The translations under genes were made by a program, and so were the position numbers. Below are positions 15,717 through 59,543 of a stretch of DNA of 64,000 bases, in pieces. The stretch is taken from positions 16,257 through 80,256 of IMG/VR virus record IMGVR_UViG_3300032116_015796, one strand, 5' to 3'. The stretch is from a virus. How positions within the stretch are numbered: position 1 is the first letter of the stretch; each line of letters begins with the position of its first letter. The notes below the pieces were generated by a model. That model worked only from the letters and a program-made list of their open reading frames with translations, was not told where the DNA came from and did no database searches.

Positions 15717-16520
15717 ATGGAAAAATTCGATATCTCGGTAATACTACCAATTAAGTCGGCAGCGGCTAGAGGATTTGATGAACTTTTTGAAAAAGCGATT
15801 GAATCTATTAAAATACAAACTTTACAAATTAAAGAACTAATCATTGTTCATACAGACGAAACCGCATTAGTAGAGTTTTTAGACCGATTTAATTTCGGTG
15901 ATATAAATGTTAAAAGAGAAGTTTGGACAAAACCGCCAAGCTACGCGGAACAAATTAATCACGGAGTTAGAGTTTCTACAGGTAATTGGATTTCATTGTT
16001 TGAATTTGATGATGAATACTCTAAAATTTGGATTAAAAACGTTAAACTATATTCAGAATCATATCCTGAAATTGACGCATTCTTACCAATTGTTGTCGAT
16101 ATTGATGAAAAAAACCAATTCGCTGGTTTTACAAATGAAGCAACGTTTGCATTAAACATTGCATCTGATATGGGTATGTTGACAAATGAAACATTACAAA
16201 CTTACCAAAATTTCCAAATATCAGGTATGGTTATTAAAAAATCAAAATTTATTGATTTTGGTTTAATTAAACCAAGTTTCAAACTTACGTTTGGCTACGA
16301 ATTCTTTTTAAGAATGACACATAATAATGTTAAATTCATGTCTATTCCAAGAATAGGGTATAAACATGTAAACCTAAGAGAAGGTTCTATTTTTTGGAAT
16401 TACAAAAATGGTGACAATGTGTTATCTGAGGATGAGGTTAAATTTTGGGTTGAGTCGGCTAAGAAAGAATATTTTTTCATCAATGACAGAGCCATAAAAT
16501 ACGAACCTTCCGAAGTTTAA
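15717..16520 (+). CDS. GT2 glycosyltransferase
   Basis: ISVILPI, SIKIQT, INHGV, EFDD (DxD variant). Confidence 0.8.
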   Translation: MEKFDISVILPIKSAAARGFDELFEKAIESIKIQTLQIKELIIVHTDETALVEFLDRFNFGDINVKREVWTKPPSYAEQINHGVRVSTGNWISLFEFDDEYSKIWIKNVKLYSESYPEIDAFLPIVVDIDEKNQFAGFTNEATFALNIASDMGMLTNETLQTYQNFQISGMVIKKSKFIDFGLIKPSFKLTFGYEFFLRMTHNNVKFMSIPRIGYKHVNLREGSIFWNYKNGDNVLSEDEVKFWVESAKKEYFFINDRAIKYEPSEV

Positions 16521-51128: not shown

Positions 51129-53159
51129 ATGATAGAATCGAAAGATAATGATGGGCAAAATAAAAACAGAGGTAACGAGAGTACCTCTACGCCAGTTTTA
51201 GATAATTTCAGTCGTGATTTGATAAAATTAGCTGAAGAAGGAAAATTAGACCCTGTTATAGGTCGTGAACAAGAGATTAATAGAATCGCACAAATTCTTT
51301 CAAGAAGAAAGAAAAATAACCCAATTATTATAGGTGAGCCAGGATGTGGTAAAACTGCAATCGCAGAAGGATTAGCAATAAAAATATTCAATGGAGAGTG
51401 TCCACGTAATTTGATGGATAAAAAAATTGTCTCATTAGATATGACATCTATTGTCGCGGGTACAAAATATAGAGGTCAGTTTGAGGAAAGAATGAAAGTT
51501 ATTATCGAAGAACTTCAAAACGCACCAAACATAATTGTATTTATTGATGAAATTCATACCATAGTTGGCGCAGGTAATTCATCAGGGTCATTAGACGCTT
51601 CGAATATTTTTAAACCCGCATTGGCAAGAGGTGAGATACAATGTATTGGAGCGACAACATTAGACGAGTACAGAAAAAACTTTGAGAAAGACGGAGCATT
51701 AGAAAGAAGATTTCAGAAAGTTATAGTTGATTCCGCGTCTAAAGAAGAAACAATTCAGATTTTAAAAAATTCAAAAGAAAGATATGAAAATTATCATAAA
51801 GTAATCTATTCTGATGAAATTTTAAATCTATGTGTTGATTTGGCTGAAAGATATATTACAGATAGAGAATTTCCTGATAAAGCGTTTGACATTTTAGATG
51901 AGGTTGGAGCTAGAAGTCAGGTTGAGGTTAAAATTCCTGAAATAATTGAGAAACTTAAACAACAAGCTTCTGATATAAAACAAGAAAAAATTGAAGTTGT
52001 TAAAAAACAAAACTATGAAGAAGCCGCAAATCTAAGAGATAAAGAAAGACGAATATTAGATAAATTAGATTTGGAGAAAAAGAAATTTGAGTCCGAGCTA
52101 ACTAATTCTAAAAAAGAAGTTACGGAGGACTTAGTTTATGATGTGGTTTCTAATATGACTAAAATTCCTGTATCTAAACTAAATTCAAATGAGACTCAGT
52201 TGTTATCAAAATTAGATGAAAGTCTAAATAAAAAAGTAATAGGTCAGTCTGAAGCGGTTACAAGAATTGCTAAATCAATTAGAAGAAATCGTTTAGGTAT
52301 TAAAGACCCTAACAAACCTATCGGCTCATTTATTTTCTTAGGGTCAACAGGTGTTGGTAAAACATATTTAGCAAAACAATTAGCGAAAGAGATATTCGGT
52401 AGTGAAGACAATATGATAAGAATCGATATGTCAGAATTCCAAGAAAAACATACAATATCTCGTTTAATTGGTGCTCCTCCAGGATATGTCGGTTACGATG
52501 AAGGAGGTCAATTAACTGAACAAGTTAAGAACAAACCGTATTCAGTTATTTTATTTGATGAGATAGAAAAGGCCAACAAAGACATATTTTCTTCATTATT
52601 ACAAGTTTTAGATGATGGACACATAACTGACGGTTTAGGTAGAAAAATTAATTTCAAAAATTGTGTTATAATTATGACATCTAATATTGGAGTTAAAAAA
52701 TTACAGGATTTTGGTACAGGTGTCGGATTCAAAACGTCCTCAAGTTCATACGTTGAGGAAGAGCATAAAAGAGCAGTTTTAAAGAAGGAGTTACAAAAAT
52801 TTTTCGCTCCTGAATTTTTGAACAGAATTGACGAAGTAATAATTTTCAACACTCTTAAAAAAGAAGAAGTTAAACAAATTGTTAAATTGGAGATGGATAA
52901 ATTAATTTCAAGATTAACTAATTTGAAATACAAAATTTCATATTCTGATGATGTTTTGGATTTAATTTCTGAGGTTGGTTTTGATGAGACTTATGGTGCA
53001 AGACCATTAAAAAGAGCAATACAAGATAAAGTTGAGGACTTTATTTCTGAAGAAGTTCTTAAGGGGTCAATAATCGAGGGTAATTCTTATAGTCTTTATG
53101 TTAAAGACAATGAAGTAAAACTTAAGGAAAAAAAGGTAAGAACAAAAAAAGGGGAATAA
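51129..53159 (+). CDS. clpC: ClpC-like AAA+ unfoldase lacking Clp_N domains
   Basis: GEPGCGKT and GSTGVGKT Walker A motifs, UVR-like YEEAANLRD, GVGF ClpP-docking loop; begins directly at STPVLDNFSRDL. Confidence 0.9.
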   Translation: MIESKDNDGQNKNRGNESTSTPVLDNFSRDLIKLAEEGKLDPVIGREQEINRIAQILSRRKKNNPIIIGEPGCGKTAIAEGLAIKIFNGECPRNLMDKKIVSLDMTSIVAGTKYRGQFEERMKVIIEELQNAPNIIVFIDEIHTIVGAGNSSGSLDASNIFKPALARGEIQCIGATTLDEYRKNFEKDGALERRFQKVIVDSASKEETIQILKNSKERYENYHKVIYSDEILNLCVDLAERYITDREFPDKAFDILDEVGARSQVEVKIPEIIEKLKQQASDIKQEKIEVVKKQNYEEAANLRDKERRILDKLDLEKKKFESELTNSKKEVTEDLVYDVVSNMTKIPVSKLNSNETQLLSKLDESLNKKVIGQSEAVTRIAKSIRRNRLGIKDPNKPIGSFIFLGSTGVGKTYLAKQLAKEIFGSEDNMIRIDMSEFQEKHTISRLIGAPPGYVGYDEGGQLTEQVKNKPYSVILFDEIEKANKDIFSSLLQVLDDGHITDGLGRKINFKNCVIIMTSNIGVKKLQDFGTGVGFKTSSSSYVEEEHKRAVLKKELQKFFAPEFLNRIDEVIIFNTLKKEEVKQIVKLEMDKLISRLTNLKYKISYSDDVLDLISEVGFDETYGARPLKRAIQDKVEDFISEEVLKGSIIEGNSYSLYVKDNEVKLKEKKVRTKKGE

Positions 53160-53173: not shown

Positions 53174-54001
53174 TTACATGAACATTCGATATTGATTTCC
53201 TTTGGGTTCAATATATCCGTGTTTACTATAACCCAATTTTTCAATCATTTTTTTTCCTGTTAAAATACCATTATAAACATCCTCAACAACAACATACTCT
53301 TCTCTTGTGTGATAATTGTAATAACCAATTGCAAAATTAATACAAGAAAAATCAAATTTTTGTTTTAGTGCATAAACATCAGTATATGGGTGAGATTGAT
53401 ATTTGTTTCTATTATCAAAATTTTCGGTTAAAACCTCATCACAAGATTTAAAAAATTCACTATTTCTATCAAATAATTTTGTCCCCATGCAGTATTCCGA
53501 AACCATAGAATTTCCAGGAGCGTCAAACTGAATTGCATAACCAACATTAATAAAGAAATTTGAATCCGCGTTTCTTGAACCATGACAACCTGTTTCTTCT
53601 GATACAAAAAACGCGGCTTTCAGATTTGGTAATTCCTTTAGTAATTCAAGACAGGCGTAAATCCCACATTTGTCGTCACCACCAATTCCTGTAGGTAACC
53701 CTTTATCATTATACGCCTTCAATGAAGGTTTTAGGACTTTTTGTTCGTTGGGTAAATTTTCTTCTCTAATGTTTATTGAGTCTAATTCGTGTACAGTATC
53801 TGTATGGGACACAACACAAGGGAAATATTCGATATTTGGGTCAGTTTGTTTTGTTGCATAGATGTTGAACATATCATCAACTTCAAACGGTATATTGTTT
53901 TCAGTCAACCAATTTGTTATAAATTCAACCATCATATCCTCTTTGTAAGTTTTACTAGGGATTGATAGGACATTTTTTAAAAGTGTGTAATCTCTTTGCA
54001 T
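53174..54001 (-). CDS. M20/M28-family zinc peptidase
   Basis: SHTDTVH, GGDDKCG, EETG, D, YH metal ligands. Confidence 0.85.
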   Translation of the reverse strand: MQRDYTLLKNVLSIPSKTYKEDMMVEFITNWLTENNIPFEVDDMFNIYATKQTDPNIEYFPCVVSHTDTVHELDSINIREENLPNEQKVLKPSLKAYNDKGLPTGIGGDDKCGIYACLELLKELPNLKAAFFVSEETGCHGSRNADSNFFINVGYAIQFDAPGNSMVSEYCMGTKLFDRNSEFFKSCDEVLTENFDNRNKYQSHPYTDVYALKQKFDFSCINFAIGYYNYHTREEYVVVEDVYNGILTGKKMIEKLGYSKHGYIEPKGNQYRMFM

Positions 54002-54010
54002 GATACAAAG

Positions 54011-55399
54011 TTACAACTTTTTCCGAGATTTCAAAACTTTTCTTTCAAATAATTCAAAATTATATAAAAAAGAATTAAATTCATCAAGAGTTAAACTTCT
54101 ATTTTTTGTAGATTCAAATTGTCTTTGAGTTACAATATTTATCTTATTTGTTTTAGGGTCAATTGAACGAATGTTAAATTTAAGGTCTTTGTCTTTTGGT
54201 GTAGGATACCATTTATCAAAATCATAACGTTTCCTAACTTCAAGATTAACATATTTAAATTCATCTAGGTTTGAGAATCTGTCACTACTTTCTACCTCTT
54301 CTATCATTTTTTCAATCTGAGATAGTGCGTAATTATTAAAGGATTCAGTATCAAAATCGTCACATCCATACTCATACATATATTCTTCATAAGGTCCAAC
54401 ATTTAATTCGTGTCCTAACTTGGATAACAATTCTTGTAAAGTTAAATCAGTATCTTTATAAAGTTTATAAAGTGATAATAAAACATTAACGGTAGTAACA
54501 TAACTGTGGAAAGTATTTTTTTCAAATATACCGTAATTAACAAATGGATTTGATAACTCATTTGTTATTTCTTTTTCTGCAGTTCTTGACATACACTGTT
54601 CCTTTTCAGATTGAAAGTCGTCAACTATATTTTCCGTTAATCTTGGAAATGTATCCATTAATAATTTAGAAATTTTTTGAGCGGTTTCATCATTAAGGTC
54701 TTTTACATTAGGTATAAAATAAGAAACTAACTCAAACAATTTTTCTCTTGCTTCACCATTTATGTCGTAAATTAGATACCCCTCATTCCAATCTTGATAC
54801 GCATAGTCAGAATGATAAAATCCCATTTCATAGCTCCCATAATAAGAATATAAATTTCTTAAAAACCATATATCATGTTCACCTAAATCAAAAAGTTTAA
54901 AATAATCTTCATTATCATCAAAAGTTAATTTAACCATACTTTTACCAGGTGATTTTTCATTAAATTTAAATCCCCCTATTAAATCATCATATCTACCTAA
55001 TGTGTGTTCAGGATATTTTTCACCGCTTTGTATTTTTTTTAGTAATTGGTATATATTTTGAACGGGTATTGTTTTGTAAACAATATTCTCAATCTGAGGG
55101 AATTGATTAAACAACTCTGAAGATTTTATTTCTTGGTCCTCGTCATCTAAATAATGTACCCCATATTCTCCAACACTGATTACATATGATTTTGTTGGTA
55201 ACCATTGATTACCTTTTTTATCAACTACTATAAAAGTATCACCGTATTTGTGAGTACCCCATTTTTTCCATAGAAATGGAGGGCCGAAGTATTTCGCAGA
55301 TTCATATGAAAGACATTTTAGGAAAATAACCTCATCATCTTCATACAAGATTTTACTACCTTCGTAGGCTTCGTTTTTTAATTCTTCTTTTTCGGACAT
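54011..55399 (-). CDS. Hypothetical protein
   Basis: 462-aa ORF with no motif recognised. Confidence 0.75.
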   Translation of the reverse strand: MSEKEELKNEAYEGSKILYEDDEVIFLKCLSYESAKYFGPPFLWKKWGTHKYGDTFIVVDKKGNQWLPTKSYVISVGEYGVHYLDDEDQEIKSSELFNQFPQIENIVYKTIPVQNIYQLLKKIQSGEKYPEHTLGRYDDLIGGFKFNEKSPGKSMVKLTFDDNEDYFKLFDLGEHDIWFLRNLYSYYGSYEMGFYHSDYAYQDWNEGYLIYDINGEAREKLFELVSYFIPNVKDLNDETAQKISKLLMDTFPRLTENIVDDFQSEKEQCMSRTAEKEITNELSNPFVNYGIFEKNTFHSYVTTVNVLLSLYKLYKDTDLTLQELLSKLGHELNVGPYEEYMYEYGCDDFDTESFNNYALSQIEKMIEEVESSDRFSNLDEFKYVNLEVRKRYDFDKWYPTPKDKDLKFNIRSIDPKTNKINIVTQRQFESTKNRSLTLDEFNSFLYNFELFERKVLKSRKKL

Positions 55400-55425
55400 A
55401 TTTATACAAATAAATACACGAAAGA

Positions 55426-55477
55426 TTTGGTATTAATCTTTTTATTCGTATATTTGTAAAACAAAAGTTCTTTAACA
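55426..55477 (+). promoter_or_regulatory. Bacteroidota-type promoter plus boxA-like element for tmRNA
   Basis: TTTG(55426)-N19-TATATTTG(55449-56)-TAAAACA; GTTCTTTAACA at 55467-77. Confidence 0.8.
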
Positions 55478-55480
55478 TAT

Positions 55481-55871
55481 GGGGGTAACTCTGGAATTGA
55501 CTGGCATAGATAGTCATTCGGGGCACGTCAGGGACGAACTAACCCTGTCAAAATGGTTCAAAAACGATAAACGGCAACGTTATCAACAAACTTTCTGCGG
55601 TAGGTCTTATCCGTACTGAGGAAAGCGTAGCAGTAGCCTAATTGAATTAGGTTACTAAAGGGGTCGGCAGACATATAACCTTGCAACAGAAGTCGTAGTT
55701 GTGGTGGATTACTATTGAACCCTAAATCGAATGGTAACCATTGTTTGTTGATTTACGATGGTGAAGAACAAATCAACTATTTTTGGAACATTAGAAAATG
55801 TTAACCTAAGCGTGTAGTCCTTAATGGGTAATGTGAACAGGACTTGGGTTCGAGTCCCAATACCTCCACCA
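55481..55871 (+). ncRNA. ssrA: tmRNA; tag (A)GNVINKLSAVGLIRTEESVAVA
   Basis: GGGGGTA/TACCTCC-ACCA acceptor stem with G3:U70, GGAATTGAC D-loop, T-arm GGGTTCGAGTCCC, tag ORF at 55573-55641. Confidence 0.93.
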
Positions 55872-55875
55872 AATT

Positions 55876-55903
55876 AAAAACCCACCAATCGGTGGGTTTT
55901 TTT
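55876..55903. terminator. Bidirectional terminator
   Basis: AAAAACCCACC-AATC-GGTGGGTTTTTT. Confidence 0.85.
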
Positions 55904-56465
55904 ATTTTAATAGTGTTATATGTCCGTAGGTTTGATGGAATCTATTATCTACATCTTTCCATTGTAAACAATAAACATAAACACCATCTTGACACATTTT
56001 ACCATTGTAAGTTCCATCCCATCCGTAATCCAAATTGTAGGACTCAAAAATAATCTGACCCCATCGGTTTACTATAAAAAAATGCTCATCAAAGTAATTG
56101 TAACCTTGTGGTTTCCATACATTATTAATTTCATCACCATCAGGTGTAAAAGTATTTGGAGCCCACATTGTGGTGTTAGGACATTCAACTAAATTTACAG
56201 TATAGTATACCATATTTGAGGGACATAAATCCTCTCCTTGTATCGCACTTAGTTGGTATGACCCGATAGAGTAATTACTCCAATTTACTGTCAAACTAGT
56301 TGTTGTAAAAATTTGACTGTCTAAAGACCAAGATATTAAACCTGATACTGTAGATTGAGTACTATAAGTAAAAGTTAAATCATTATCCTCACATTTCTCA
56401 ATAGTTTGTTGAGAGAACAGACTTGATGAACATACCAATGATAATATAAGAAATAGTTTCTTCAT
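55902..56465 (-). CDS. Secreted protein with a T9SS type-B (gliding motility-associated) C-terminal domain
   Basis: Signal peptide; PNTFTPDGD..N.W.P..NRWGQ..F....WDG.YNG....GVY.Y...GHITLLK. Confidence 0.88.
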   Translation of the reverse strand: MKKLFLILSLVCSSSLFSQQTIEKCEDNDLTFTYSTQSTVSGLISWSLDSQIFTTTSLTVNWSNYSIGSYQLSAIQGEDLCPSNMVYYTVNLVECPNTTMWAPNTFTPDGDEINNVWKPQGYNYFDEHFFIVNRWGQIIFESYNLDYGWDGTYNGKMCQDGVYVYCLQWKDVDNRFHQTYGHITLLK

Positions 56466-56467
56466 AC

Positions 56468-57034
56468 TTAATTGTGTTGTATTGGGGATAAAACAGGAAT
56501 TGGATTAACCGTTACTGAAGTGGTAGTTGTAAATGTACAACCGTTTTGTGTTACCGTGTAAGTTATGTTAAATGTACCGACACCACTTGTAGTTGGACAA
56601 AATTGATTACCAACAACACCTGTTCCTGACCATGTACCTCCAGCAGGTGTTCCAACTAAATTAACACAAGGGTCGTTAGAGCAAAACGGACCTATTGATG
56701 TTATTGTTGGGTTAATCTGTAAAATAAAAACATTTAAATTTACAGGAGTACTTACACAACCTCCAGGACCTGTAGCGGTTACAGTAACTGCATTTGTAAT
56801 CAACCCAGGACCTGCGGCAGACCAATTGACATTTATACTATTTGTACCCGCTCCACTCGTAATAACACCTGGTGCTAAAACAGTCCAAGTATAAGTGTAT
56901 CCCACTCCCAAAGAAGGGACTTGGTAAATTGACCCTGAAGTATTGATACATACAGTGTCGGGATTAGTTGTTGTTAATTGACCATAACTTATCATGGAAA
57001 TTAACATTAGTAGTATTGTGAGAAATTTTTTCAT
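56468..57034 (-). CDS. Secreted Ig/PKD-like protein ending in PIQHN
   Basis: Signal peptide; YTWTV..G.ITSGAGTNSINVNW; GTPAGGTWSGTGV. Confidence 0.8.
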   Translation of the reverse strand: MKKFLTILLMLISMISYGQLTTTNPDTVCINTSGSIYQVPSLGVGYTYTWTVLAPGVITSGAGTNSINVNWSAAGPGLITNAVTVTATGPGGCVSTPVNLNVFILQINPTITSIGPFCSNDPCVNLVGTPAGGTWSGTGVVGNQFCPTTSGVGTFNITYTVTQNGCTFTTTTSVTVNPIPVLSPIQHN

Positions 57035-57052
57035 TTTTTTCTTTTTTATATT

Positions 57053-57640
57053 TTAGTTATGACTTATAGGTCCAACAATTGGTGGTGTAGGGTTGCTTGT
57101 TCCGTTGTAAATATTAAATGGTGTCGCCAAATCACACGAAGTACTATTCCAACTTCCCCATAACCCATCTGAACCAGGTGTAACTTGTATTAATAAATTT
57201 TGTGGTGTACATAAAGTGGATACTGTTACTTGAAAACAAAAAGTCCATACACATGAACCATTGTCCCCAAAGTCATTCGCAGGATTACCATCAATAGTTA
57301 AATCAAAGAAATATCCAGGACCTATAGGACCCACAGGTGTAGGACATGATGTCATCCAAATCCATTGTCCTCCTGAAACCGCTCCTCCACAATTTGCGGG
57401 TGGAGATACGGGTGTTAATCCTGTCCATCCAGGACCTAAAGTTAAATCAAAACCCTCAATCCAATTGGACCCCGTTTGAGTATACCCATTCATGGTATAA
57501 CATACGTTAACTACAGTACCAGGAGTATATCCACCAACAGGTGGTGTTGGGGTTAGTGTAAAAGTTTGAGCCCCATTACACTGACTAAAAACAGGTAATG
57601 ATAAAAGAAAAAATAATATAGTGAAAATCGTTACCTTCAT
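57053..57640 (-). CDS. Secreted Cys/Gly/Pro-rich beta protein ending in PISHN
   Basis: Signal peptide ending VFS-QC; same C-terminal motif as its neighbour. Confidence 0.75.
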   Translation of the reverse strand: MKVTIFTILFFLLSLPVFSQCNGAQTFTLTPTPPVGGYTPGTVVNVCYTMNGYTQTGSNWIEGFDLTLGPGWTGLTPVSPPANCGGAVSGGQWIWMTSCPTPVGPIGPGYFFDLTIDGNPANDFGDNGSCVWTFCFQVTVSTLCTPQNLLIQVTPGSDGLWGSWNSTSCDLATPFNIYNGTSNPTPPIVGPISHN

Positions 57641-57685
57641 TACTATAAATACGAATATTTCACTATAAAGTTGTCTGTTATAAAC

Positions 57686-57728
57686 AAAAAAAGGGAGAAT
57701 ATTGGTGGTTAGTCAATTTCTCCCTTTT
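57686..57728 (-). terminator. Terminator closing the RNA locus
   Basis: AAAAGGGAGAA...TTCTCCCTTTT stem; the A run at 57686-92 is the minus-strand U tract. Confidence 0.8.
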
Positions 57729-57729
57729 A

Positions 57730-58095
57730 ACCGTGGAACTTTCTCTGTCGGTAAGTCCAACCCGATACTTTTGTTAGTGAGACAAAAGTAACCATTGTCG
57801 TATGGTCGAGTTTGTACAATTTAAACGTCTATGTTTTTTATCATTTTTTCATATTTAAACACCTACTAAAATTTTTGTGGTTATCACAGAAATCCACATC
57901 TTAAAAAAAGGTGTCGTACAGTTTTCTGTCTATTGCCAGACAAAGTCATGTCGAGGACTCAAGCGGCGCTCTTATTTCCTTTACTTTTTTCCTTAAGGGT
58001 AAAAATGTGTGACAAAGAGTCTGAACCATCACGAATAAAACCCTGATTGTTCTGTTTTGTTCTCAGTTTAAACTCATGTTAGGTGTGATACAATT
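57730..58095 (-). ncRNA. Unidentified structured ncRNA candidate (~320-370 nt)
   Basis: No ORF; nested stems found by eye (CTTTGTC/GACAGAG, AGTCC/GGACT, ACACCT/AGGTGT, TGTGG/CCACA, TGTCTG-GCAA-TAGACA, three-way junction); boundaries approximate. Confidence 0.5.
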
Positions 58096-58122
58096 CTAAA
58101 GAACACCTATCGGAGTCACTTG

Positions 58123-58194
58123 TTGCGGGAGAAGGATTCGAACCTTCGACCTCAAGGTTATGAGCCTTGCGAGCTTCCACTGCTCTATCCCACT
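58123..58194 (-). tRNA. tRNA-Met(CAT), initiator (fMet)-like; CCA not encoded
   Basis: 72-nt cloverleaf AGTGGGA-TA-GAGC..GCTC-G-CAAGG-CTCATAA-CCTTG..GAAGG-TTCGAAT-CCTTC-TCCCGCA-A; 1:72 mismatch and A11:U24. Confidence 0.92.
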
Positions 58195-58202
58195 ATATGG
58201 CT

Positions 58203-59061
58203 AAGGCTGAGATTATACCTTTTATTTGAGAACCTTTCGAGTCATTATTGCTTCTACTCTTATCCACTTCCTTTTGAGAAGTATTTCTCAGTGACGGTCT
58301 TTTAGGTTTACCACTCCTTGAGGTCTTGGTTACTCTCTTATTACTCAACTCTCTTCGAGGATGCCTCCCCAATTAATCCTTGCGGGATTAGAGGTCTTTG
58401 GTAAAACTACACTCGGACTTGGGGTCTTTGTGTGCAATGAACGGCTCATTACTATGTAGTCACCTTTCACCAAAACCTGGTAGACACTTTTCCTTAGATT
58501 TCATAATTAATAGGACTTAATTTTTAGTCATAAGTTTTGTGTCGTGGATGTATCGAAGTAGTGGTCTACCCTAAGCTCAGTCATCTTTTGAACAACTGAA
58601 TACTAAACTACTCCGTGAGATGTCCCCACCTCCATATTTCAAGTTTACTTCGTACCAAGACCTTGGTGGGTCTTTGATAAGGATAGTAGCGACACCACTC
58701 GTTCTCTATCTTACCTTTCGGTTTTAAGTCCACTTTCATATTGGAACCCGCAATTATGTAATTGGATAACTACACCTCTCACTTGATTCCTATGGGTTAT
58801 TCTTATTGGTGTTCCCACCTCAACCAAACAATCCACATTGCTTGGTCACCCAACCACTTTCCCTAAAGCGTCGCCCTCAGTACTGAAGGTCGGGTGATAT
58901 CCCACTTGTATACTCGAGTTCGGTTTCCCAAACCGCAGAATCATCAACACGGGTGATTCCACTTTATCCTACTTTCGTAGTTTATTTAACGACCATATAC
59001 GGCCGATTATCTTTTACAGGTTATCATCTCCCCGAAGGGGTACTTTCACCTGATGGATAAT
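58203..59061 (-). ncRNA. Large structured ncRNA, GOLLD-like (~860 nt)
   Basis: No credible ORF; GC-richer than flanks; many GNRA/UUCG hairpins on the minus strand; abuts a tRNA; 3' hairpin AAGGTATAATCTCAGCCTT resembles my recollection of GOLLD 3' ends; family needs a covariance-model search. Confidence 0.7.
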
Positions 59062-59067
59062 TCAATC

Positions 59068-59137
59068 TTTCAAAGAACTCTATCGGACGTTTCCGATTTG
59101 TTTTACAAAGTTAAGAACAATTTTTTTAATTTCCAAA
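59068..59137 (-). promoter_or_regulatory. Promoter/hairpin/boxA cassette 1
   Basis: TTTG-N20-TAACTTTG-TAAAACA, ATCGGA-AACG-TCCGAT hairpin, GTTCTTTGAAA. Confidence 0.8.
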
Positions 59138-59158
59138 TTTTTCTCAAACTTTTTTTTC

Positions 59159-59275
59159 GGTTATTATAACTGTTGCGGTAACATGTCTCATTTACACTTT
59201 AAATGCGAAGGATTCCCGTAGTCACTTTCCTCACATACAACAGTAGCCCTACGGACCTAGACTGTTTCTATAACC
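59159..59275 (-). ncRNA. Small pseudoknotted ncRNA candidate (~117 nt)
   Basis: GGTTAT/ATAACC terminal stem, AACA-GTCT/AGAC-A-TGTT, CCGTAG/CTACGG, CATTTA/TAAATG and pseudoknot ACTGTTGT/GCAACAGT; has its own promoter cassette. Confidence 0.55.
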
Positions 59276-59281
59276 AATTTT

Positions 59282-59349
59282 TTTAAAGAACTCATCGGAC
59301 ATTTCCGATTTGTTTTACAAAGTTAAGAAGAACTTTTTAATTTTCCAAA
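59282..59349 (-). promoter_or_regulatory. Promoter/hairpin/boxA cassette 2 (direct repeat of cassette 1)
   Basis: TTTG-N20-TAACTTTG-TAAAACA, ATCGGA-AATG-TCCGAT, GTTCTTTAAA. Confidence 0.8.
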
Positions 59350-59366
59350 TTTTTCTTCAACTTTTT

Positions 59367-59510
59367 TTAAGATACTACGTATACATCGTCAGTACCGTGA
59401 AATTTAGCTCTTGCCATTGCAAGAACGGCACTACAAGTGTAATACTTCACACCATCATTCCCATAGTAGTAGAACAAAGGTTCGTCAATTACTTGTGTTT
59501 CGTTACTCAT
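59367..59510 (-). CDS. 47-aa small protein MSNETQVIDEPLFYYYGNDGVKYYTCSAVLAMARAKFHGTDDVYVVS
   Basis: ATG-TAA ORF below the track cut-off, directly downstream of cassette 3. Confidence 0.65.
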   Translation of the reverse strand: MSNETQVIDEPLFYYYGNDGVKYYTCSAVLAMARAKFHGTDDVYVVS

Positions 59511-59543
59511 GTTTGAGTTTTTAAACAGTTAATACTCGGTTAA

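Follow-up and report, generated by a model that had tools for sequence, protein, structure and literature searches.

A very probable full-length GOLLD RNA gene on a large freshwater phage and a small acidic protein gene linked to it

GOLLD RNAs, reportedly first described in 2009 by Weinberg et al., form protein-free cages that have been recognised since 2025 and are larger than the ribosome. We know of no function or partner for them. The cages consist of RNA only and contain 10 to 14 subunits, and their function is still unknown (PMC12286853; PMC12990946). The env-38 GOLLD, 833 nt in length, assembles into a homo-14-mer cage (PDB 9MEE) and carries both of its domains in a single chain (PMC12286853); its 5′ domains form the caps and its 3′ domains the rings, with the linker inside (PMC12286853; PMC12990946). 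The GOLLD of Streptococcus agalactiae (Sag) has 700 nt and forms a dodecamer, the 3′ domain by itself assembling into a decamer (PMC12990946); this 12-mer RNA is without P9, P11a-c and P21b (PMC12286853; PMC12990946). In the solved GOLLD structures, subunits contact each other through two kissing loops, L21b and L21a, the latter having a GC/CG dinucleotide that is self-complementary. Nanomolar RNA concentrations suffice for stable cages and the 5′ region has been described as less conserved (PMC12286853), and some members of the family hold tRNAs embedded in the linker (PMC12286853; PMC12990946).

The window analysed here is a stretch of 64,000 nucleotides (positions 16,257 to 80,256 of IMG/VR virus record IMGVR_UViG_3300032116_015796). 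An initial annotation of its letters had named an RNA on the minus strand as GOLLD from size, context and a 3′ motif. The name holds: the Rfam GOLLD covariance model (RF02032) matches 58615..58204 (minus strand), untruncated, with 312.9 bits (E = 1e-88), the cut-off used for GOLLD membership being the gathering score of 150 bits, and model positions 1–416 of 416 are all matched with high posterior probabilities. The proposed check against the GOLLD and ROOL models was thus positive for the former, and ROOL gave no Rfam match at E ≤ 1 in 54000..64000. All five minus-strand hairpins that the annotation had listed are in the sequence where it placed them, and the context and size that it had invoked, with phage genes and an adjoining tRNA-Met, fit GOLLD. 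Its account of the family stands as regards function, still unknown, and was outdated on structure, RNA-only 10- to 14-mer cages being known (PMC12286853; PMC12990946).

Two of the listed hairpins, the GCAA-capped one (58389..58375) and the one closing the 3′ end (58219..58204), are hairpins of the RF02032 model; their stems vary among 66 relatives while their loops are fixed. The loops of the two P21 hairpins, CCGCAAGG and GGCA, are invariant or nearly so across the 66 relatives, and were tentatively placed as L21a and L21b via the Rfam consensus position rather than by alignment with env-38. ARAGORN found no tRNA inside the linker of the 3′ domain (Table 1). There is no ORF longer than 59 aa in 57641..59366, and the only noteworthy one in 57641..59884 has 47 codons for amino acids. 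We consider it very likely that the minus strand at ~59101..58204 holds a complete GOLLD RNA gene, borne by a large freshwater phage whose host is probably a member of the Bacteroidota. As a new copy within an already known RNA family, it adds little to the GOLLD family alone.

Table 1. Features in and around the GOLLD locus (window positions)
Feature	Positions	Strand	Details
GOLLD 5′ domain	58616..59061	−	~446 nt
GOLLD conserved 3′ domain	58204..58615	−	Part covered by RF02032, 412 nt
Single-stranded linker in GOLLD 3′ domain	~58553..58480	−	74 nt, A/U-rich
Two P21 hairpins of GOLLD 3′ domain	58389..58375 and 58370..58357	−	
GOLLD promoter	59106..59136	−	TTGGAA (59136..59131), 17-nt spacer, TAACTTTG (59113..59106)
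Transcribed leader	59068..59101	−	Predicted start ~59101, hairpin, boxA-like GUUCUUUGAAA (59078..59068)
tRNA-Met (anticodon CAU)	58122..58194	−	ARAGORN; Rfam tRNA 61.4 bits
Trailing non-coding RNA	57686..58121	−	~400 nt; ends in intrinsic terminator
Promoter/leader duplicate and putative small RNA	59160..59368	−	94-nt duplicate 59368..59275; RNA of ~115 nt 59275..59160
Small ORF	59510..59367	−	47 aa, acidic; own promoter and boxA-like leader at ~59603..59544
Phage-encoded tmRNA	55426..55871	+	Tag peptide GNVINKLSAVGLIRTEESVAVA
Two small phage proteins	55902..57034	−	CHU_C type IX secretion signal domain and PKD-like domain
ClpB/ClpA-like double AAA+ ATPase	51129..53159	+	AAA_2, AAA_lid_9, ClpB_D2-small
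T4 Rnl1-type RNA ligase	61932..63005	−	PHROG 562, Pfam RNA_lig_T4_1; 3 kb from the GOLLD/tRNA/tmRNA cluster

Since RF02032 covers only the conserved 3′ domain, the 450 nt upstream were examined separately. A search of IMG/VR with a pattern of the 3′ domain yielded 109 GOLLD loci, to ~60 of which window positions 59110..58616 were aligned by nhmmer over their full length. In every one of these ~60 full-length relatives the 5′ part directly abuts the 3′ domain, the RNAs measuring 880–943 nt. Covariation was assessed on an alignment of 35 non-redundant sequences, from which RNAalifold predicted 19 helices in the 5′ domain; one spurious helix, which paired the promoter, was dropped and 105 pairs were kept. 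In these pairs 97.5% of the cells are paired, as against 36–40% when the partners are slid by 1–3 columns, and compensatory changes occur in 64 of the 105, as against 16–24 after sliding; none of 500 shuffles reached any of the five covariation measures. The whole 898-nt RNA folds at −255.9 kcal/mol, compared with −220.1 ± 5.7 kcal/mol for shuffled sequences (z = −6.3), and does better than all 20 shuffles. Covariation and folding alike bear out the structured RNA that had been supposed from its hairpins.

The window sequence itself retains the pairs of the covarying 5′ helices. The hairpin CUAC-GAAA-GUAG (58980..58969) is helix 5 of the consensus, with compensatory changes in three of its four pairs and a GAAA loop that is invariant in the 35 sequences, and ACC-GAAA-GGU (58722..58713) is helix 16, present in 35/35. 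The CCCC-UUCG-GGGG hairpin (59040..59030) lies within a hypervariable insertion close to the 5′ end (59050..59020); its length and sequence differ among the relatives, and around this insertion only the enclosing helix covaries. The clade of lake phages thus provides a deep covariation alignment for the poorly modelled 5′ domain of GOLLD.

The promoter of the GOLLD gene is conserved throughout the 35-sequence alignment, usually as TTGACA-N17-TAACTTTG, and the Bacteroidota −7 motif TAnnTTTG is part of TAACTTTG. On the 3′ side of the promoter come TAAAACAAA, a covarying hairpin and GTTCTTTGAAA, in this order. The hairpin, AUCGG-AAACGU-CCGAU (59097..59082), is helix 1 of the alignment and changes in concert between UCGG/CCGA, CAGG/CCUG and UUGG/CCAA; the boxA-like GTTCTTTGAAA (59078..59068) is nearly invariant, and motif and hairpin are both kept in 35/35 phage sequences. 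Judging from the spacing of the promoter, the transcript probably starts near 59101, the first GOLLD helix beginning ~40 nt further on at 59061. The extent of ~860 nt (58203–59061) proposed at the outset is therefore right for the beginning of the first helix and short of the likely transcript start, as indicated by the conserved promoter and leader.

Leaders of rRNA operons carry boxA antitermination signals, whose consensus is known from E. coli and B. subtilis. The GOLLD leader has in common with them the order of promoter, hairpin and GTTC(T/A)TTGA motif, as seen in Tenacibaculum and Flavobacterium: in the 16S leaders of these two genomes, TAnnTTTG, a hairpin and GTTCATTG follow each other in the same order. 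The hosts read GTTCATTG whereas the phage reads GTTCTTTGAAA, one base apart. A scan of 185,579 genomes for the exact promoter-plus-boxA cassette returned 77 matches; none of them (0/77) stands before a 16S gene, and most look like chance occurrences within genes. The scan thus lends no support to an exact copy in a host and points to no host, and the likeness is accordingly based on two genomes and a motif with a one-base difference. No publication was found that contains the boxA motif string. We regard the resemblance to an rRNA-type hairpin and boxA leader as apparently real but only partly tested.

The TAnnTTTGTAAAACA cassette occurs in exactly four copies in the 80-kb record, before the tmRNA, the small ORF, a small RNA of ~115 nt and GOLLD. 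At the tmRNA, the TAnnTTTGTAAAACA promoter is accompanied by a boxA-like AGTTCTTTAAC and there is no hairpin. Upstream of GOLLD, 94 nt of its promoter and leader are duplicated as a direct repeat with 83% identity, and this duplicate appears to drive the separate small RNA of ~115 nt. The small RNA contains no ORF and matches no Rfam family (59275..59160); nhmmer found related sequence upstream of GOLLD in three other loci (L069, L048 and L065).

A tRNA lies just past the end of the RNA, as the initial annotation had stated, with a gap of 9 nt (58203..58195) instead of the ~8 nt that it gave. This tRNA-Met(CAU) has an A1-A72 mismatch and no encoded CCA. The mismatch is initiator-like, yet only two of the three expected G-C pairs are present beside the anticodon loop, and the tRNA may be an initiator, an elongator or tRNA-Ile2. 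Among the relatives, tRNA-Met stands 9–24 nt downstream or 27–175 nt upstream of GOLLD and is adjacent in ~30; many others have no tRNA in the available DNA around GOLLD. Behind the tRNA follows the trailing RNA, whose terminator (57724..57686) consists of GGGAGAA (57724..57718) and UUCUCCC (57699..57693) followed by U7. No ORF and no Rfam family were found in it (57686..58121). Four further loci (L082, L019, L061 and L106) have conserved counterparts of it after their GOLLD, and a consensus fold drawn from only five sequences has 53 pairs, 14 of them with compensatory changes. From the span of ~1.4 kb between promoter and terminator, GOLLD, tRNA-Met and trailing RNA are probably made as one ~1.4-kb transcript that is cut by tRNA-processing enzymes. 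The clade offers a clean picture of GOLLD expression: the gene has a promoter of its own and a leader like that of rRNA, and tRNA-Met and the trailing RNA are probably transcribed along with it.

The 47-aa ORF upstream of GOLLD was searched for in 96 GOLLD loci by tblastn and then with an HMM built from the matches. It was found in 60 of the 96 loci, and each of the 60 HMM matches stands immediately before GOLLD in the same orientation; a six-frame translation of ~1 Mb contained none elsewhere. Its stop codon usually falls ~50 nt before the −7 promoter box of GOLLD. A reverse search started from the protein alone (on a sub-alignment) gave 56 loci, 51 of them with at least 150 nt of downstream sequence. 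In 47 of these 51 a GOLLD 5′ domain of the same orientation follows at no more than 650 nt, and the downstream sequence of the other four (≤352 nt) is too short to show GOLLD. The pairwise difference is 0.37 at the first, 0.35 at the second and 0.59 at the third codon position, the last being the most variable, and conserved residues use two to four synonymous codons (three or four each for Thr, Ala, Gly and Val). By this pattern, the ORF is a protein gene under coding selection.

The gene next to GOLLD belongs to 12 families upstream and to 21 families downstream among 86 distinct GOLLDs. Because the pair of ORF and GOLLD persists in nine of the 12 upstream and 10 of the 21 downstream neighbourhoods, their linkage is more than plain synteny. 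In this phage and in about one third of its relatives the small ORF uses a promoter cassette of the stable-RNA type found at GOLLD. It is missing in about one third of the clade, chiefly at loci with tRNA-Met upstream. The protein family has a median pI of 4.8 and a predicted beta-beta-alpha-beta fold (pLDDT 81). In a large database of 5.8 billion proteins it forms at least 222 clusters, all unnamed and without a Pfam family, and the protein itself matches no Pfam or PHROG family. Comparison with the PDB by Foldseek gave a best E of about 1, VIA-align a best Z of 3.8 to a generic mini-protein fold, and the ESM Atlas scores of 0.80 or below, which is chance level; tblastn found no match among GenBank phages.

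One further sequence, P0121 (467 aa), is a RimO-like radical-SAM methylthiotransferase with the small-protein sequence at residues 427–466, at 70% identity to the copy of locus L095. It is a single sequence on a metagenome contig of 1.7 kb and was therefore not accepted as a fusion; it could possibly be a gene-calling run-through caused by a lost stop codon.

The position of the gene, directly before GOLLD and on the same strand only, the variety of the neighbourhoods in which the pair is kept and the common cassette lead us to put forward the 47-aa acidic protein as a candidate for a dedicated GOLLD partner, which might be a cofactor, a cargo or a factor for the assembly or disassembly of the cage. 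This proposal is tentative, and we hold it with clearly less than even confidence. Neither the GOLLD cryo-EM paper nor the 2026 review, the two sources compared, mentions a protein partner or an upstream ORF. If the proposal were true, the small protein would be the first protein handle on GOLLD function.

The carrier is part of the genome of a large freshwater phage; its IMG/VR virus record has 80,256 bp and is estimated to be 27% complete, and the window encodes major head, portal and large terminase genes. The domain composition of the two small proteins encoded beyond the tmRNA (CHU_C and PKD-like) is odd for a phage and hints at a Bacteroidota host. With the CHU_C type IX secretion signal domain, which we take to be a Bacteroidota marker, and the TAnnTTTG promoters, the host probably belongs to the Bacteroidota. 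The RNA ligase may act in tRNA repair. On the other side of the small ORF, 24-nt tandem repeats (TTTTCCTTTTTTTCTTTTTCAGAT, plus strand) occupy 60085–60209 within an M23-peptidase-like ORF of 218 aa (59885–60541, minus strand).

A near-identical stretch occurs in 20 sequencing runs from 19 studies, mostly of freshwater. Six of the 20 runs are RNA libraries, with 34–58% of the sampled words of the stretch, which shows no more than that much of it is present in RNA-library assemblies. Among GenBank phages, only LR745206.1, an uncultured ‘huge phage’ of 635 kb, matches the GOLLD RNA of the clade, and no culturable model phage with this RNA was found there. In LR745206.1 (420443–421225; locus L002) GOLLD is preceded by tRNA-Met at a distance of 27 nt, and a search for the small ORF there found none. 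A search for Rfam GOLLD in 151 sampled genomes from the phylum of a Flavobacterium MAG found none and gave no prophage or host lead.

Other readings of the locus have to be weighed against a full-length, cage-forming GOLLD. The RNA could be mainly a giant structured leader and processing scaffold for tRNA-Met, which would obtain stable, rRNA-like expression and ordered RNase P processing from it, the cage being incidental. The tRNA-Met is indeed only 9 nt away here and stands at the distances given above, on one side or the other, in ~30 relatives; the gene has a promoter and leader like those of stable RNAs, and the linker of some GOLLDs has tRNAs embedded in it (PMC12286853; PMC12990946). 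However, many relatives lack a tRNA in the available flanks and the tRNA may stand on either side; a covarying structure of ~900 nt, in which putative inter-subunit loops are conserved, goes far beyond the needs of a leader, and the cages are stable at nanomolar RNA (PMC12286853). We judge this explanation improbable.

Another view would separate 59061..58616 and the part matched by Rfam into two RNAs lying side by side, as might be suggested by an Rfam model that spans only the 3′ 412 nt and by a 5′ region described as less conserved (PMC12286853). It is largely refuted, and we give it very little weight: no gap separates the two parts in any of the ~60 full-length relatives, neither a promoter cassette nor a terminator lies between them, and env-38 carries both domains in one chain of 833 nt (PMC12286853). 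Equally slight is the probability that we are dealing with a remnant of a GOLLD that is decaying and has lost its function. Nothing specific speaks for decay beyond the fact that the record is a 27%-complete fragment in which function is not demonstrable by sequence, whereas the full-length model match with its high posterior probabilities, the retained pairs of the covarying 5′ helices, the intact promoter, leader and terminator and the near-identical sequence in 20 runs of 19 studies all argue against it. A new RNA class that is merely GOLLD-like in size and context had also been considered; no point in its support was left after testing, and a match to the entire model at 312.9 bits, where the curated cut-off is 150, rules it out for practical purposes.

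Under the favoured reading of a full-length GOLLD gene, the host RNA polymerase would start at ~59101 and transcribe GOLLD, tRNA-Met and the trailing RNA of ~400 nt before stopping at the terminator (57724..57686). The hairpin and boxA, which resemble an rRNA leader, would shield this long untranslated transcript from premature termination, and a cut by RNase P at the 5′ end of the tRNA would release GOLLD with a 9-nt tail. The RNA would then self-assemble into a protein-free cage, with caps built from the 5′ domains, rings from the 3′ domains and an inward-facing linker of 74 nt. By analogy, this cage is probably of the 14-mer type of env-38, the sole ground for this guess being that P21a and P21b are both present. 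As to its role, our best guess, and a doubtful one, is that the cage holds or shields a translation-related RNA or protein during infection; it is prompted by the promoter type that the cage gene shares with the tmRNA and the small RNA, by the adjoining tRNA-Met and by the nearby RNA ligase, and it is weakened by the many relatives in which no tRNA adjoins GOLLD.

Among the known systems, env-38 and the RNA of the window, compared here by features and not residue by residue, have in common the conserved 3′ domain, matched in full, and a covarying 5′ domain of ~450 nt in which some hairpins are capped by GAAA. They further share a single-stranded linker after the first hairpin of the 3′ domain, the two P21 hairpins, whose GC-containing loops are conserved, a phage origin and an adjoining tRNA-Met. 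They differ in length (833 nt for env-38, ~860–900 nt here) and in the side on which the tRNA-Met lies, downstream of GOLLD in the window and upstream in env-38, and the window RNA has, unlike env-38, its own hypervariable insertion. The Sag GOLLD is of the same family and has the same 3′ domain core (P14–P27), but its setting is a Firmicute prophage; the window RNA, with both P21 hairpins and a longer 5′ domain, is therefore closer to env-38 than to Sag. ROOL is likewise a large ornate phage RNA found near tRNA genes, which forms RNA-only cages (an octamer) and whose function is unknown, but in sequence and fold it is unrelated to the RNA described here.
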